Positions 3,078 through 56,882 of a DNA stretch of 64,000 nt are shown here, piece by piece. How positions within the stretch are numbered: the stretch's first letter is position 1; each line of letters begins with the position of its first letter. Source of the stretch: Escherichia coli (GTDB taxonomy: Bacteria > Pseudomonadota > Gammaproteobacteria > Enterobacterales > Enterobacteriaceae); assembly GCF_003334305.1 (NCBI RefSeq), contig NZ_QOWS01000020.1; one strand, given 5' to 3'. The position numbers were made by a program, and so were the translations under genes. The notes under the pieces were generated by a model. That model saw nothing but the letters and a program-made list of their open reading frames with translations. It did not search any database and was not told where the DNA came from.

Positions 3078-4532
3078 ATGTATATCGGGATAGATCTTGG
3101 CACCTCGGGCGTAAAAGTTATTTTGCTCAACGAGCAGGGTGAGGTGGTTGCTTCGCAAACGGAAAAGCTGACCGTTTCGCGCCCGCATCCACTCTGGTCG
3201 GAACAAGACCCGGAACAGTGGTGGCAGGCAACTGATCGCGCAATGAAAGCTCTGGGCGATCAGCATTCTCTGCAGGACGTTAAAGCATTGGGTATTGCCG
3301 GCCAGATGCATGGAGCAACCTTACTGGATGCTCAACAACGGGTATTGCGCCCTGCCATTTTGTGGAACGACGGGCGCTGTGCGCAAGAGTGCACTTTGCT
3401 GGAAGCGAGAGTTCCGCAATCACGAGTGATTACCGGCAACCTGATGATGCCCGGATTTACTGCGCCTAAATTGCTATGGGTTCAGCGGCATGAGCCGGAG
3501 ATATTCCGTCAAATCGACAAAGTATTATTACCGAAAGATTACTTGCGTCTGCGTATGACGGGGGAGTTTGCCAGCGATATGTCTGACGCAGCTGGCACCA
3601 TGTGGCTGGATGTCGCAAAGCGTGACTGGAGTGACGTCATGCTGCAGGCTTGCGACTTATCTCGTGACCAGATGCCCGCATTATATGAAGGCAGCGAAAT
3701 TACTGGTGCTTTGTTACCTGAAGTTGCGAAAGCGTGGGGTATGGCGACGGTGCCAGTTGTCGCAGGCGGTGGCGACAATGCAGCTGGTGCAGTTGGTGTG
3801 GGAATGGTTGATGCTAATCAGGCAATGTTATCGCTGGGGACGTCGGGGGTCTATTTTGCTGTCAGCGAAGGGTTCTTAAGCAAGCCAGAAAGCGCTGTAC
3901 ACAGCTTTTGCCATGCGCTACCGCAGCGTTGGCATTTAATGTCTGTAATGCTGAGTGCAGCATCGTGTCTGGATTGGGTCGCGAAATTAACCGGCCTGTG
4001 CAATGTCCCAGCTTTAATCGCTGCAGCTCAACAGGCTGATGAAAGTGCCGAGCCAGTTTGGTTTCTGCCTTATCTTTCCGGCGAGCGTACACCACACAAT
4101 AATCCCCAGGCGAAGGGGGTTTTCTTTGGTTTGACTCATCAACATGGCCCCAATGAACTGGCGCGAGCAGTGCTGGAAGGCGTGGGTTATGCGCTGGCAG
4201 ATGGCATGGATGTCGTGCATGCCTGCGGCATTAAACCGCAAAGTGTTACGTTGATTGGTGGCGGGGCGCGTAGTGAGTACTGGCGTCAGATGCTGGCGGA
4301 TATCAGCGGTCAGCAGCTCGATTACCGTACGGGGGGGGATGTGGGGCCAGCACTGGGCGCAGCAAGGCTGGCGCAGATTGCGGCGAATCCAGAGAAATCG
4401 CTCATTGAGTTGTTGCCGCAGCTACCGTTAGAACAGTCGCATCTACCAGATGCGCAGCGTTATGCCGCTTATCAGCCACGACGTGAAACGTTCCGTCGCC
4501 TCTATCAGCAACTTCTGCCATTAATGGCGTAA
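3078..4532 (+). CDS. xylB: xylulokinase (484 aa)
   Basis: MYIGIDLGTSGVKVILL... FGGY-family sugar kinase immediately downstream of xylA. Confidence 0.95.
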   Translation: MYIGIDLGTSGVKVILLNEQGEVVASQTEKLTVSRPHPLWSEQDPEQWWQATDRAMKALGDQHSLQDVKALGIAGQMHGATLLDAQQRVLRPAILWNDGRCAQECTLLEARVPQSRVITGNLMMPGFTAPKLLWVQRHEPEIFRQIDKVLLPKDYLRLRMTGEFASDMSDAAGTMWLDVAKRDWSDVMLQACDLSRDQMPALYEGSEITGALLPEVAKAWGMATVPVVAGGGDNAAGAVGVGMVDANQAMLSLGTSGVYFAVSEGFLSKPESAVHSFCHALPQRWHLMSVMLSAASCLDWVAKLTGLCNVPALIAAAQQADESAEPVWFLPYLSGERTPHNNPQAKGVFFGLTHQHGPNELARAVLEGVGYALADGMDVVHACGIKPQSVTLIGGGARSEYWRQMLADISGQQLDYRTGGDVGPALGAARLAQIAANPEKSLIELLPQLPLEQSHLPDAQRYAAYQPRRETFRRLYQQLLPLMA

Positions 4533-22519: not shown

Positions 22520-22615
22520 GACGTAGGCCTGATAAGACGCGTCAGCGTCGCATCAGGCAACGGCACCGCACTTATTGTCGGATGCGGCGTGAACGCCTTA
22601 TTCGACCTACACGCC
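22520..22615. repeat. REP / BIME-type palindromic units
   Basis: GCCTGATAAGACGCG...CGCATCAGGC and CGGATGCGGCGTGAACGCCTTAT units typical of E. coli REP elements. Confidence 0.7.
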
Positions 22616-52788: not shown

Positions 52789-52857
52789 GCTGCCTCATTT
52801 TCCGCCTGGCTGGACTATCTTTAGGACTGGCACAGGAAGAATATGAGGAAGCGAACG

Positions 52858-54918
52858 ATGAGCAAGGCAGGCAAAATAACCGCTGCGATTTCAGTGGCTT
52901 TCTTGTTGTTGATTGTCGTGGCGATCATTTTGATTGCAACTTTTGACTGGAATCGACTCAAACCGACCATCAACCAGAAAGTCTCTGCGGAGTTGAATCG
53001 TCCGTTCGCTATCCGTGGCGATCTGGGCGTGGTGTGGGAGCGGCAAAAACAAGAAACTGGCTGGCGCAGCTGGGTGCCGTGGCCCCATGTACACGCGGAA
53101 GACATCATTCTTGGCAATCCACCGGATATTCCCGAAGTCACGATGGTGCATTTGCCACGCGTAGAGGCAACGCTGGCCCCGCTGGCGCTGCTGACCAAAA
53201 CGGTCTGGCTGCCGTGGATCAAGCTCGAAAAGCCCGACGCGCGCCTGATTCGCCTCTCCGAAAAGAACAATAACTGGACGTTTAATCTCGCCAACGATGA
53301 TAACAAAGACGCGAATGCAAAGCCGTCGGCATGGTCGTTTCGGCTGGATAATATTCTTTTCGATCAAGGGCGGATCGCCATTGATGACAAAGTAAGCAAA
53401 GCGGATCTGGAGATTTTTGTTGATCCGTTAGGCAAGCCGCTGCCGTTCAGCGAAGTTACTGGATCGAAAGGTAAAGCGGATAAAGAAAAGGTGGGCGATT
53501 ACGTTTTTGGCCTGAAGGCGCAGGGACGTTATAACGGTGAACCGCTCACGGGTACGGGAAAAATAGGCGGTATGCTGGCGCTGCGTGGCGAAGGGACGCC
53601 GTTTCCGGTACAGGCTGATTTCCGCTCTGGTAACACCCGTGTTGCTTTTGATGGCGTCGTGAATGACCCAATGAAGATGGGCGGTGTCGATTTACGGCTT
53701 AAATTTTCTGGCGATTCACTGGGTGATCTCTATGAACTGACGGGCGTTCTGCTGCCCGATACCCCGCCATTTGAAACGGATGGTCGGCTGGTAGCGAAAA
53801 TCGACACTGAAAAATCGTCGGTCTTTGATTATCGCGGTTTTAATGGGCGAATTGGCGATAGCGATATCCACGGTTCTCTGGTCTACACCACCGGAAAGCC
53901 ACGACCAAAACTGGAAGGTGATGTCGAGTCGCGGCAATTGCGGCTGGCGGACCTGGGACCGTTAATTGGCGTTGACTCCGGGAAAGGGGCAGAAAAGTCG
54001 AAACGGTCTGAACAGAAGAAGGGCGAAAAAAGCGTTCAGCCTGCGGGCAAAGTGCTGCCTTATGACCGCTTCGAAACCGATAAATGGGACGTTATGGATG
54101 CCGATGTTCGCTTCAAAGGGCGGCGCATTGAGCATGGCAGTAGCCTGCCGATTAGCGATCTTTCTACTCATATCATCCTCAAAAATGCTGACCTGCGCCT
54201 GCAACCGCTGAAATTTGGCATGGCGGGCGGCAGCATTGCGGCGAATATTCATCTGGAAGGCGATAAAAAGCCGATGCAGGGGCGGGCAGATATTCAGGCT
54301 CGTCGACTGAAACTGAAAGAACTGATGCCCGATGTGGAACTGATGCAGAAGACGCTGGGGGAAATGAACGGTGACGCGGAACTACGCGGTAGCGGTAACT
54401 CGGTGGCAGCACTTTTAGGCAACAGTAACGGCAACCTGAAACTGTTGATGAATGACGGGCTGGTGAGCCGCAACCTGATGGAGATTGTTGGGCTGAATGT
54501 CGGCAACTACATTGTCGGTGCGATATTTGGTGACGATGAGGTGCGGGTGAACTGCGCGGCGGCGAATCTGAATATTGCCAACGGCGTGGCGCGCCCGCAG
54601 ATTTTTGCTTTCGATACTGAGAACGCGTTGATTAATGTTACCGGCACGGCAAGTTTTGCTTCGGAACAGCTGGATTTGACTATTGATCCGGAGAGTAAAG
54701 GGATTCGGATTATCACACTGCGTTCGCCGCTGTATGTGCGTGGGACGTTTAAAAATCCGCAGGCTGGGGTGAAAGCCGGGCCGTTGATTGCCCGTGGTGC
54801 TGTTGCTGCGGCACTGGCAACGCTGGTAACACCGGCGGCGGCGTTACTGGCACTGATCTCACCTTCCGAAGGGGAGGCTAATCAGTGTCGGACGATATTG
54901 TCGCAGATGAAGAAGTGA
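52858..54918 (+). CDS. yhjG: AsmA-family protein YhjG (686 aa)
   Basis: MSKAGKITAAISVAFLLLIVVAIILIATFDWNRLKPTINQ...; N-terminal TM anchor and large periplasmic domain. Confidence 0.9.
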   Translation: MSKAGKITAAISVAFLLLIVVAIILIATFDWNRLKPTINQKVSAELNRPFAIRGDLGVVWERQKQETGWRSWVPWPHVHAEDIILGNPPDIPEVTMVHLPRVEATLAPLALLTKTVWLPWIKLEKPDARLIRLSEKNNNWTFNLANDDNKDANAKPSAWSFRLDNILFDQGRIAIDDKVSKADLEIFVDPLGKPLPFSEVTGSKGKADKEKVGDYVFGLKAQGRYNGEPLTGTGKIGGMLALRGEGTPFPVQADFRSGNTRVAFDGVVNDPMKMGGVDLRLKFSGDSLGDLYELTGVLLPDTPPFETDGRLVAKIDTEKSSVFDYRGFNGRIGDSDIHGSLVYTTGKPRPKLEGDVESRQLRLADLGPLIGVDSGKGAEKSKRSEQKKGEKSVQPAGKVLPYDRFETDKWDVMDADVRFKGRRIEHGSSLPISDLSTHIILKNADLRLQPLKFGMAGGSIAANIHLEGDKKPMQGRADIQARRLKLKELMPDVELMQKTLGEMNGDAELRGSGNSVAALLGNSNGNLKLLMNDGLVSRNLMEIVGLNVGNYIVGAIFGDDEVRVNCAAANLNIANGVARPQIFAFDTENALINVTGTASFASEQLDLTIDPESKGIRIITLRSPLYVRGTFKNPQAGVKAGPLIARGAVAAALATLVTPAAALLALISPSEGEANQCRTILSQMKK

Positions 54919-54954
54919 TGAGGTTGGATTGTGTTTGCTGGTGAGTTCGGGAGC

Positions 54955-55145
54955 AGCGTGTTCCCCTCACCCTAACCCTCTCCCCAAAGGGGCGAGGGGA
55001 CTGTTTTGTGCGTGTTGAAACAACGAGTACCGCTTTTCCGTTCACTTTCTGGGGGAGGGCTGTTATGTTCGCGATATAACATCTCGCTCCGCTTTTCTCC
55101 CTCTCCCTTTCAGGGAGAGGGCTGGGGTGAGGGTGGCTGCCCACA
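54955..55145. repeat. pair of GC-rich hairpin repeat units in inverted orientation (unclassified intergenic repeat)
   Basis: Unit 1 CCCCTCACCCTAACCCTCTCCCCAAAGGGGCGAGGGG (~54962-55000) and unit 2 TCCCTCTCCCTTTCAGGGAGAGGGCTGGGGTGAGGG (~55097-55132) are near reverse complements; between convergent yhjG and yhjE. Confidence 0.6.
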
Positions 55146-55151
55146 CGATAC

Positions 55152-56474
55152 TTACAACGACTGATGTCGCGTCTCATGGGTCAGCAGCAGGGCGATTAAC
55201 GTCAAGCCAGCCATCGCCGCCAGATATAACCCCACCGCACCTAACCCGTAGTTAGCCTGCAACCAGGCTGCGATATATGGTGCAACGGAAGCCCCGAGAA
55301 TCGACGCTACGTTGTAAGAGAACGATGCTCCGGTGTAACGCACTTCTGTCGGGAACAGCTCTGGTAACAGCGCGCCCATCGGCCCGAAGGTCAGTCCCAT
55401 CAGACTTAACCCCAGCAGCAGGAAGGCAAAAACCAGAATCGGGTTGCCAGAACCGAGCAGCGGGTTAAAGGCGAACAGCGCGAACAGGATGATCAGCGTG
55501 GTGATGATTACCATGCTTTTACGGCGACCAAAGGCATCAGCCAGTAATCCGGCGACTGGCACCATCACGCCAAAACCAATAACTGCCATCATCAGCATCC
55601 ACAACACTTCGTTACGCGGCAGGCCAAGCCCAACTGGCGCGGCGGCGGTACTGAAGGTCATAGAGTAGACCGTCATGATGTAAAACAGCGTATAGGTTGC
55701 CAGCATAATGAACGTACCCAGTACGGTTACGCGAACATGTTTGGTCAGCAGCGTACCCAGCGGGATCTTCACCTGTTTTTTCGCTTTAGCGACTTTCTCA
55801 AACACCGGCGACTCATGCAGCGACACGCGAACATACAGGCCGATAATGACCAGCACCGCCGAGAAGATAAATGGCACACGCCAGCCCCAGCTCATAAACT
55901 GCTCGTCGGTCAGTAGCCAGGAAAGCAGCAAGAAAGTGCCGTTGGCAAAGAAGAAGCCAATCGGTGCGCCCAGCTGTGGGAAGGAGCCATACAGTGCACG
56001 TTTGCGCGGTGGGGCGTTTTCAGTCGCCAGCAGCGCCGCGCCGCCCCATTCACCGCCTAAGCCCAGACCCTGACCAAATCGAGCCAGCGCCAGCAGCAGC
56101 GGGGCGAAAATACCAATCGTGGCATAGCCCGGCAGCAGACCAATCACCACGGTCGAAATCCCCATCGTTAGCAACGAGGCGACCAGCGTCGCTTTACGCC
56201 CAACGCGATCGCCAAAATGACCAAAAACGGCAGAGCCAATGGGGCGCGCGACGAAGGCGATGGCGAAGGTGGCGAGCGACTGTAGCGTTGCTGCCGTTGG
56301 ATCGCCCTGCGGGAAGAAGATATGCGGAAACACAATAACGGCCGCAGTGGCGTAAATGTAAAAGTCGAAGAACTCAATGGCCGTGCCAATGAGAGAGGCG
56401 ACAAGGACTTTATTACGCGAGTTGATCGGCGTGTATTCTTGCTCGTGGTCGAGTGTTGTGGCTGTTGCTTGCAT
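55152..56474 (-). CDS. yhjE: MFS transporter YhjE (440 aa)
   Basis: MQATATTLDHEQEYTPINSRNKVLVASLIGTAIEFFDFYIYATAAV...; 12-TM metabolite:H+ symporter family. Confidence 0.92.
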   Translation of the reverse strand: MQATATTLDHEQEYTPINSRNKVLVASLIGTAIEFFDFYIYATAAVIVFPHIFFPQGDPTAATLQSLATFAIAFVARPIGSAVFGHFGDRVGRKATLVASLLTMGISTVVIGLLPGYATIGIFAPLLLALARFGQGLGLGGEWGGAALLATENAPPRKRALYGSFPQLGAPIGFFFANGTFLLLSWLLTDEQFMSWGWRVPFIFSAVLVIIGLYVRVSLHESPVFEKVAKAKKQVKIPLGTLLTKHVRVTVLGTFIMLATYTLFYIMTVYSMTFSTAAAPVGLGLPRNEVLWMLMMAVIGFGVMVPVAGLLADAFGRRKSMVIITTLIILFALFAFNPLLGSGNPILVFAFLLLGLSLMGLTFGPMGALLPELFPTEVRYTGASFSYNVASILGASVAPYIAAWLQANYGLGAVGLYLAAMAGLTLIALLLTHETRHQSL

Positions 56475-56785: not shown

Positions 56786-56882
56786 AGCCGGATGCGATGC
56801 TGGCGCATCTTATCCGGCCTACGGGGAGCCAGGCCGAATAAAATCGTATGCCGGATAAGGCGTTTACGCCGCATCCGGCCTA
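56786..56882. repeat. REP / BIME palindromic units
   Basis: GCCGGATGCGATGCTGGCGCATCTTATCCGGCCTAC and TGCCGGATAAGGCGTTTACGCCGCATCCGGCC, canonical REP sequences, immediately downstream of yhjD. Confidence 0.8.

Follow-up and report, generated by a model that had tools for sequence, protein, structure and literature searches.

A divergent pair of BoxC (PIT/TMECO) repeats in the variable yhjG-yhjE gap of Escherichia coli

Introduction

BoxC repeats of Escherichia coli were reportedly treated by Bachellier et al. The motif called BoxC in the 1990s and later the PIT element (Hoyne & Maher 2000, 2002) has also been published as TMECO (Holder et al. 2015, PMC4666352), with the consensus CCCTCNCCC-N3-6-GGGNGAGGG-N3-GGGNGAGGG[G/T/C/-]. 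That account (PMC4666352) counts 23 strict copies in MG1655, finds TMECOs always intergenic, describes A+B inverted pairs and hypervariable loci, and types the units by their second loop, A being TTA and B being CCG and variants; all five MG1655 inverted pairs combine type A with type B. An independent survey names BoxC among the known E. coli families, giving for it older published figures of 56 bp and 32 copies.

Several other repeat classes invite comparison. REP/BIME elements resemble BoxC in being short GC-rich palindromic intergenic repeats, often at gene 3' ends, with units that alternate in orientation and are joined by conserved linkers. They are known to act as stabilisers at mRNA 3' ends, and REPs fill the very gap studied here, yhjG-yhjE, in K-12-type strains. 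The two families nevertheless lack sequence similarity, a third G-rich block being a feature of BoxC, for which we know of no RAYT-type transposase or binding protein. ERIC/IRU elements are likewise enterobacterial intergenic imperfect palindromes, and contain CTGGGGTGAG, superficially like the third block of BoxC, but they are 127 bp long and have another consensus. MITEs with long terminal inverted repeats (Correia/NEMIS, RUP) are like the pair described below in measuring ~170 bp, in their inverted ends and in the possibility of one long hairpin; the pair differs from them in lacking a target-site duplication, in having an interior unique to its locus, and in having no known parent IS.

A likeness of a different sort concerns RNA. 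In Rho-dependent transcripts the 3' end falls directly behind a stable stem-loop that lacks a U-tract, and such stem-loops are protective against PNPase and RNase II (Dar & Sorek 2018, PMC6061677). The BoxC copy at the 3' end of lldD in K-12 is similar in having no U-tract, an end a few nt downstream, and a place in a Rho termination region. The stem-loops of PMC6061677 are however a functional class, whereas BoxC is a sequence family, whose role at yhjG-yhjE would be assigned by analogy.

Results

A head-to-head BoxC pair between convergent genes

In the 64-kb stretch of E. coli DNA analysed here (the window), yhjG (52843-54918, + strand; AsmA-family protein) and yhjE (55152-56474, - strand; MFS transporter) converge, leaving a gap of 233 nt from stop codon to stop codon (54919-55151). 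Both genes were taken from the list of open reading frames and named from RefSeq annotation (for yhjG, the annotation under 100% matches), and their stop codons are the left and right edges of a gap that varies among strains. A repeat finder returned inverted arms at 54964-54998 and 55099-55133, of 35 nt, 83% complementary and 100 nt apart. Two inverted units between these genes had been proposed in an initial annotation of the window, with the spacing estimated at ~95 nt.

The left unit occupies 54963-54998 on the - strand, reading CCCTCGCCC-CTTTG-GGGAGAGGG-TTA-GGGTGAGGG-G, and the right unit occupies 55099-55134 on the + strand, reading CCCTCTCCC-TTTCA-GGGAGAGGG-CTG-GGGTGAGGG-T. Both are 36 nt long, both lie wholly between the two stop codons, and both fit the published TMECO consensus with 0 mismatches. 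Each is built of three blocks: a pyrimidine and a purine arm make up the hairpin, and past it lies a second G-rich block (GGGTGAGGG); this third block had been overlooked in the initial annotation, as had a degenerate third copy in the spacer. The left unit is of type A with one Watson-Crick mismatch ('A mm') and is identical to MG1655 TMECO nos 7, 11 and 15, which are typed in the same way (Table 1 of PMC4666352). The right unit is of type B; it differs at 2 positions from MG1655 TMECO no. 8, another type B unit with a CTG loop (PMC4666352). With TTA in the left second loop and CTG in the right, the pair obeys the A+B rule. The exact two 36-mers, 100 nt apart, are present in Supplementary Table S8 of PMC4666352 for E24377A (NC_009801 3987937-3988108) and SE11, and the right-unit 36-mer occurs 14 times in that file.

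Such sequences are not expected by chance. The hairpin motif CCCTCTCCC-N-GGGAGAGGG, on which the initial annotation had rested, occurs once in the window where 0.00 are expected, and the three-block pattern CCCTCNCCC-N3-6-GGGNGAGGG-N3-GGGNGAGGG matches exactly twice, at the two units, with none of 100 shuffles containing any match. Multiple copies of the unit are dispersed in the genome: the number of megablast places per complete E. coli genome has a median of 5 and reaches 12, and a 4.8-Mb replicon carrying the window allele has 24 blastn places.

No match to the REP consensus (GCCGGATGCGGCG / GCCTGATGCGACGC-type palindromes) was found in 54919-55151 at up to 3 mismatches, while true REPs lie elsewhere in the window, at ~22527-22610 and 56786-56882. 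With up to 3 mismatches allowed, the ERIC1R/ERIC2 primer sequences matched nowhere in the window. An Rfam scan of 54000-56000 (E up to 10) returned only chance-level eukaryotic miRNA and IRES models, with E >= 0.8 and far below gathering scores.

The two units are thus almost certainly BoxC repeats in head-to-head (divergent) arrangement, and BoxC, alias PIT or TMECO, is a known, catalogued family separate from REP. The initial annotation had suggested a separate intergenic repeat family that does not follow the REP consensus of the window, and had proposed comparison with boxC. The distinction from REP holds, the units are dispersed in the genome, and the comparison places both units in BoxC. 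The family is not an uncharacterised one, the exact pair being already present in Supplementary Table S8 of PMC4666352; both units match a catalogued family, and the feature is therefore not novel. The initial annotation had itself named a match to a catalogued repeat family as evidence that would count against its reading, and BoxC/PIT/TMECO is such a family.

The pair agrees with the published BoxC/TMECO description in consensus, A/B loops, A+B inversion, intergenic position, dispersal and hypervariability. It departs from the five K-12 pairs in spacing, 100 nt against 16-59 nt, and its head-to-head geometry is found in only one of the five. The longer spacer is due to an internal, diverged duplication. 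This linker (54999-55098) starts with GACTGT and ends with CGCTCCGCTTTTCT, and pairwise alignment revealed in it an old duplication of ~62 nt, with copy 1 at 54989-55062 and copy 2 at 55051-55124. The two copies are about 70% alike, and the direct repeats that mark them are alike at 71% (D1) and 86% (D3). Tandem Repeats Finder called no array in the linker, the duplication being too diverged and visible only by pairwise alignment. Repeat D3 includes a degenerate type-B core hairpin remnant (CGTTCACTTTCTGGGGGAGGGCTG, 55039-55062, + strand), 86% alike to 55104-55124, whose folding has been lost (0 kcal/mol). The spacer was also considered as a Rho-loading (rut) site and rejected on composition, which is not C-rich (C 23 and G 25 per 100 nt).

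Predicted folding of the units and of the whole gap

Each unit is predicted to form its own hairpin, with energies as DNA of -8.6 kcal/mol (left) and -10.5 kcal/mol (right), and as RNA in the mRNA sense of -19.7 and -21.9 kcal/mol. In the yhjG mRNA the predicted core stem-loop is CCCUCUCCCC-AAA-GGGGCGAGGGG followed by ACUGUUUUGUG (54976-54999, + strand), and in the yhjE mRNA it is CCCUCUCCCU-GAA-AGGGAGAGGG followed by AGAAAAGCG, without a U-tract (55099-55121, - strand). The hairpin found at the same position in the K-12 allele is comparable as RNA (-20.9 kcal/mol). Folding the gap as a whole gives a structure dominated, on either strand, by a long-range stem joining the two units, at -102.6 kcal/mol (z -3.7) for the + strand and -92.2 kcal/mol (z -5.2) for the - strand. 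Both the individual hairpins and the long-range stem had been anticipated in the initial annotation, and the predictions bear them out, the pair as a whole making a long imperfect palindrome.

Alternative fillings of the gap

In E. coli the yhjG-yhjE gap is filled in at least five different ways, of which the window pair is one. The full window allele, with a gap of 233 nt holding the A unit, the 100-nt linker with its decayed copy and the B unit, is found in 1,468-1,470 of 5,426 complete E. coli genomes (~27%). A 172-nt allele, found in about 130 genomes, is missing a 62-nt segment that in the window lies between the direct repeats GGGAGGGCTG and GAGAGGGCTG; in this allele the remnant at 55039-55062 is joined directly to the third block. 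The K-12/O157/B2-type allele has no BoxC, and instead has a hairpin with a 14-bp stem, unrelated to BoxC, together with two REPs. A fourth allele has REPs only, and the fifth is a 40-nt gap with only the hairpin of the K-12 type. Homology between alleles begins exactly at both stop codons and the gap itself is unalignable, whereas the flanking genes differ at only 1-3 per 100 nt (97-99% identical) across alleles. With at least five alleles, and 27% of genomes carrying the window type, the locus is more rearranged than its flanking genes, which served as the comparison here.

The inner 100 nt occur in one place each in 1,601 E. coli genomes. No donor for them was found elsewhere in E. coli, and with a single copy per genome, gene conversion from another locus is unlikely. 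Neither a clean empty site nor a target-site duplication was found at yhjG-yhjE or at the sister locus lldD-trmL, where alleles differ by deletions and replacements; lldD-trmL shows analogous partial deletions, one replacement and one unrelated short gap.

A YhjE scan of species-representative genomes showed the convergent yhjE/yhjG order to be conserved in Enterobacteriaceae, with the gap again variously filled. Pseudocitrobacter has an A+B pair in the same order as the window, Enterobacteriaceae RIT691 has the whole A+B module flipped, Enterobacter asburiae and Cedecea neteri have single BoxC units, and Citrobacter, Lelliottia and Phytobacter have REPs; several other genera, with gaps of 43-67 nt, have only a bare CCCTCTCCC-loop-GGGAGAGGG hairpin. 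The RIT691 units are identical to those of the window at 35/35 and 34/35 positions while yhjE is only 78.8% identical, which argues that the units do not drift like neutral intergenic DNA.

Farther afield, the strict BoxC pattern was found in at least 120 IMG/VR contigs (median GC 0.61, loops varied), and similar elements are on Klebsiella, Rhizobium, Sinorhizobium and Azospirillum replicons. Cultured phages hardly ever carry the element (3 of 50,697 records). A candidate plasmid-borne BoxC was rejected: the E. coli plasmid match that was inspected sits between flgG and flgF, which is chromosomal-type DNA.

Flanks and linkers shared among BoxC copies

We compared the flanks of 23 units from the window, MG1655 and other genera, and conservation reaches past the 36-mers into flanks specific to the unit type. 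Type A units have ...CTCGATCgGTC on the 5' side and GAACAgGCC... on the 3' side, and type B units have ...cgcTTTTCT on the 5' side and CATCAGcGCGCAC or TAAATATTCGC... on the 3' side. The GAACA... flank is present in 6 of the 10 type-A copies compared, the window copy included. In the window this type-A 3' flank, common to type-A copies at other loci, lies at 54950-54962 (GAACACGCTGCTCC on the - strand), and megablast matches at other loci reach query positions 21-83, or 54950-55012.

Linkers are shared as well. One of 27-29 nt, reading about TAAATATTCGCGCCAGTGCCGGCCTGTTC, is common to three K-12 tail-to-tail pairs. The head-to-head linkers have similar ends, GACnGt...CGAGCnCGCTTTTCT, in the window, in K-12 lldD-trmL, in K-12 no. 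3, which has a decayed partner, and in Enterobacteriaceae RIT691. In our reading of the alignments, BoxC would be a mosaic resembling BIME organisation.

Transcript 3' ends at BoxC units

The K-12 gap itself has no BoxC, and 3' ends at BoxC units were sought elsewhere in the K-12 Term-seq tables of Adams et al. (2021, PMC7815308). For lldD the primary end is MG1655 3781065(+), and a type-A unit transcribed in the C-rich sense has its core hairpin 3-4 nt before it; this end is within a significant Rho termination region, and its intrinsic score, the only one measured at a sister copy, is 1.32 with a cut-off of 3 (PMC7815308 data). Two further ends in these data, 4231270(-) and 632098(+), lie 3-10 nt past degenerate A units, and another, 847200(-), lies just past a hairpin transcribed in the G-rich sense and is seen in all three growth conditions. 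In all, a curated 3' end was found at only ~4 of roughly 25-30 K-12 BoxC copies, and gcvP has its own, separate canonical terminator ahead of the BoxC pair. Both genes of the window read their nearest unit in the C-rich sense, the same as lldD.

Discussion

A passive 3'-end hairpin as the favored reading

Taking all of this together, we consider it probable that the feature is a BoxC pair with a passive, RNA-level role as 3'-end hairpins, and possibly a secondary effect at the level of DNA. The part of this reading that concerns RNA is held less firmly: by analogy with lldD, we give about an even chance that each unit would serve as a stable 3'-end hairpin for its converging mRNA. The transcript of each gene would read its nearest unit in the C-rich sense, and would fold into a stem-loop of ~-20 kcal/mol that is not a canonical intrinsic terminator. 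Termination farther downstream, whether Rho-dependent or diffuse, followed by 3'-to-5' trimming, would then leave the mRNA end at the stem-loop, which would protect the message. On the model of the lldD end, the yhjG mRNA would end at the core stem-loop at 54976-54999, 81 nt past the stop codon, and the yhjE mRNA would end at that at 55099-55121, 53 nt past the stop codon. The role of mRNA stabiliser, which the initial annotation had offered as one of two functions, would on the same analogy be plausible at yhjG-yhjE.

At the DNA level, the same blocks may form hairpins, a cruciform or an intrastrand triplex, and would offer short direct and inverted repeats; these structures and repeats are plausibly why the locus is so rearranged between strains. 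For the family as a whole, which has no demonstrated dedicated function, we infer that units are held near consensus and turn over by deletion, duplication and wholesale replacement.

DNA structure as a possible main effect

DNA structure may alternatively be the main effect rather than a secondary one, with an intrastrand purine-motif triplex folded from the three blocks on the G-rich strand, a cruciform formed by the pair or a G-quadruplex formed by the G-runs stalling replication or repair and making the locus a rearrangement hotspot. This is the thesis of Holder et al., and it is compatible with the reading favored above. In the class II purine motif the triads are G*G:C, A*A:T and T*A:T (PMC4666352). 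Judged by sequence, 9 of 9 triads are legal in the right unit, and the left unit has 9 legal third-strand contacts with 8 of 9 triads perfect, the exception being one A:G Watson-Crick mismatch that matches the published 'mm' subtype; the window has 4 G4 motifs, and both units are among them. Triplex spectra were obtained in vitro for oligonucleotides of types A and B, mismatched or not, and variability at TMECO loci exceeded that of controls (PMC4666352). However, the duplex form dominated once the complementary strand was present, and an in vivo DMS footprint showed no triplex protection (PMC4666352).

The variability of the gap can be read in more than one way. Its five or more alleles with sharp edges at the stop codons, the 62-nt indel between direct repeats, and the similar deletion series at lldD-trmL are all in line with a hotspot, but ordinary repeat-mediated recombination or repeat turnover could equally cause such variability, and REP-filled alleles of the same gap are equally variable. 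A bare hairpin would be enough for RNA protection, yet the third block GGGNGAGGG is kept across very different taxa, which points to something beyond a simple RNA hairpin. We therefore keep the DNA-level reading as a parallel effect, while considering it unlikely, though quite possible, as the main one.

A possible BIME-like mosaic

A more ambitious reading of the flank and linker conservation would make BoxC a BIME-like mosaic, held to its consensus, reinstalled either way around in a convergent gap, and co-opted as symmetric 3'-end caps linked to Rho-dependent termination. Its parts would be the two unit types (A and B) and the two conserved linkers. The family consensus would be kept while the flanking genes diverge by ~20%, and the same gap would be refilled across genera. 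We put this forward tentatively and regard it as doubtful; if true, it would imply an active copying or homogenising mechanism.

Termination, insertion and other alternatives

The initial annotation had also suggested a bidirectional terminator, which the results do not support. In an intrinsic (Rho-independent) version, each hairpin would directly stop RNA polymerase arriving from its gene. The RNA hairpins are strong enough (~-20 kcal/mol), in the yhjG direction ACUGUUUUGUG comes after the left one, and the K-12-type alleles have their 14-bp-stem hairpin at the same position. However, a promoter and terminator scan of 54500-55600 called no terminator (and no promoter), the right hairpin is followed in the yhjE direction by AGAAAAGCG, an A-rich tail with no U-tract, and behind the mismatched stem of the left unit there is only UGUUUUGUG. 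Experiments of Hoyne & Maher (2002), in so far as they are related in PMC4666352, gave no promoter or terminator activity and no effect on RNA polymerase, and the lldD end at the sister locus, with its intrinsic score below the cut-off, lies in a Rho termination region. We find an intrinsic terminator improbable.

Equally improbable, in our view, is a MITE-like composite mobile element in which the A and B units are terminal inverted repeats and a module of ~170 bp inserts whole. The 35-nt arms with 83% complementarity would suit such an element, as would the linkers that go with pairs and the A+B module in the same gap, in the same order in Pseudocitrobacter and flipped whole in RIT691, where near-identical units (35/35 and 34/35) accompany a yhjE of 78.8% identity. 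Against it, the inner 100 nt are single copy in every E. coli genome having them, no target-site duplication or clean empty site was found at yhjG-yhjE or lldD-trmL, K-12 pairs are tail-to-tail, the opposite geometry, in four cases out of five, no transposase is associated, and the element is in only 3 of the 50,697 cultured-phage records.

It is still less likely that the two units act together as one long RNA stem, paired in read-through or antisense transcripts to give an RNase III substrate that couples the decay of both mRNAs. Folding of the full gap does predict such a stem as the dominant structure, whichever strand is taken, but the stem would need transcription through the first hairpin and the spacer, with local hairpins forming first; covariation support is absent, and strains with the 172-nt allele have no complementary arm. 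Chance similarity or a small protein gene can be set aside almost entirely: open reading frames at 54878-55177 (-) and 55006-55164 (+) are both in the program-made list, but the pattern is expected 0 times by chance, the natural indel, at 62 nt, is not divisible by 3 and changes the reading frame, and in K-12 other sequence stands in place of the entire region.

Implications

For the window itself, the BoxC assignment is of little consequence: the label 'BoxC (PIT/TMECO) repeat pair, type A + type B' suffices for its annotation. BoxC is, however, among the few abundant repeat families in E. coli that have no assigned function or mechanism of spread, and three leads have come from this locus and its relatives: K-12 Term-seq ends at the foot of BoxC hairpins, a single gap filled with BoxC, a bare hairpin or REPs, and the conservation of flanks and linkers. 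The window copy is not made novel by them, but together they make the idea of a 3'-end cap combined with repeat turnover directly testable.

Alleles of the yhjG-yhjE gap within E. coli

The entire gap between the convergent yhjG and yhjE genes, from stop codon to stop codon (window 54919-55151), is replaced from strain to strain, as comparison of the window with loci L001, L003, L004 and L005 from other E. coli shows. In the K-12-type allele it holds an unrelated hairpin with a 14-bp stem (TTGCCGGATGTCTGACATCCGGCAA) together with two REPs. REPs alone fill a second E. coli allele, and in a third the gap is only 40 nt long, with the same hairpin as its sole content. Mechanical calling yields two ORFs across the BoxC pair, of 99 aa (window 54878-55177, minus strand) and 52 aa (55006-55164, plus strand); both were rejected as genes, since among natural alleles this region shows a 62-nt indel and is in some cases replaced altogether.

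The neighboring yhjE itself varies: that of the GTDB E. coli representative shares only 92.3% DNA identity with the yhjE of the window, and in that of strain EV36 mismatches number 12-21 per 100 nt (yhjE of L007 and L005). Markedly divergent yhjE alleles are thus circulating in E. coli.

Elsewhere in the window, the initial annotation had recognized REP sequences, and these are indeed ordinary REP pairs, at 22527-22610 and 56786-56882, of the types GCCGGATG... and GCCTGATAAG....

The same gap in other genera

In other genera of the Enterobacteriaceae the yhjE-yhjG gap carries BoxC pairs, single units, or a bare CCCTCTCCC-loop-GGGAGAGGG hairpin alone, and in one case the BoxC pair is flipped as a complete module. 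Such content was mapped at 3829-3932 in L027/L028, 3837-3929 in L034, 3841-3873 in L025 and 3821-3855 in L062, and directly past yhjE in L017, L029, L024, L033 and L065. The BoxC units of strain RIT691 match the E. coli units at 34-35 of 35 positions, despite a yhjE that is only ~79% identical. In Enterobacter, an insert of ~350 nt adjoins BoxC (L030 ~3880-4300; L022 ~3890-4230), and one species has it reversed relative to the other; no Rfam family reached its gathering threshold in this insert.

Sister BoxC copies in E. coli

In the lldD-trmL gap of E. coli STB20-1, a 34-nt palindrome, GCTGTCTCTTGATCAGATCTCCTGATCAAGAGACAG, stands where K-12 has the inner portion of its BoxC pair (L097 ~258-292), an allele found also in O145 RM10425 and others; the arms of this palindrome may resemble the IS50/Tn5 inside end. 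In the fepB leader, a strong Term-seq 3' end (MG1655 624680, minus strand; L091 position 381; ~100,000-240,000 reads) precedes a type-B BoxC unit by 4 nt instead of following its hairpin, with a Rho score of 0.375 and an intrinsic score of 1.39.

BoxC in viral and plasmid records

In IMG/VR, at least 120 predicted viral contigs, which may be phage DNA or host flanks, contain the strict BoxC/TMECO pattern (loci L099-L178 and beyond; examples are L123, L130, L112 and L147-L149, the last from a single 43-kb contig with seven copies). Among the matches listed, these contigs are mostly GC-rich (median 0.61), with TTG and TCA among the common loops. Campylobacter phages A18a and A11a (MG065686.1, MG065691.1) each match 44 nt of an E. 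coli BoxC unit at three places with 95.5% identity, which is odd for such AT-rich phages; the source may be contamination or transfer.

BoxC-like sequence was also found in 452 records of the plasmid collection (matches H124-H138), a single replicon having as many as 29 places; Klebsiella (111), Rhizobium (68), Sinorhizobium (65) and Azospirillum (44) are represented. Some of these records are mislabelled chromosomes, e.g. the 4.8-Mb NZ_OL790696.1, which contains the window allele of the yhjG-yhjE gap and 24 BoxC-like places. The 155-kb E. coli 'plasmid' p94_0962-1 has a BoxC copy (L094 1501-1538) flanked by flgG and flgF, which makes the replicon a carrier of chromosomal-type flagellar DNA.
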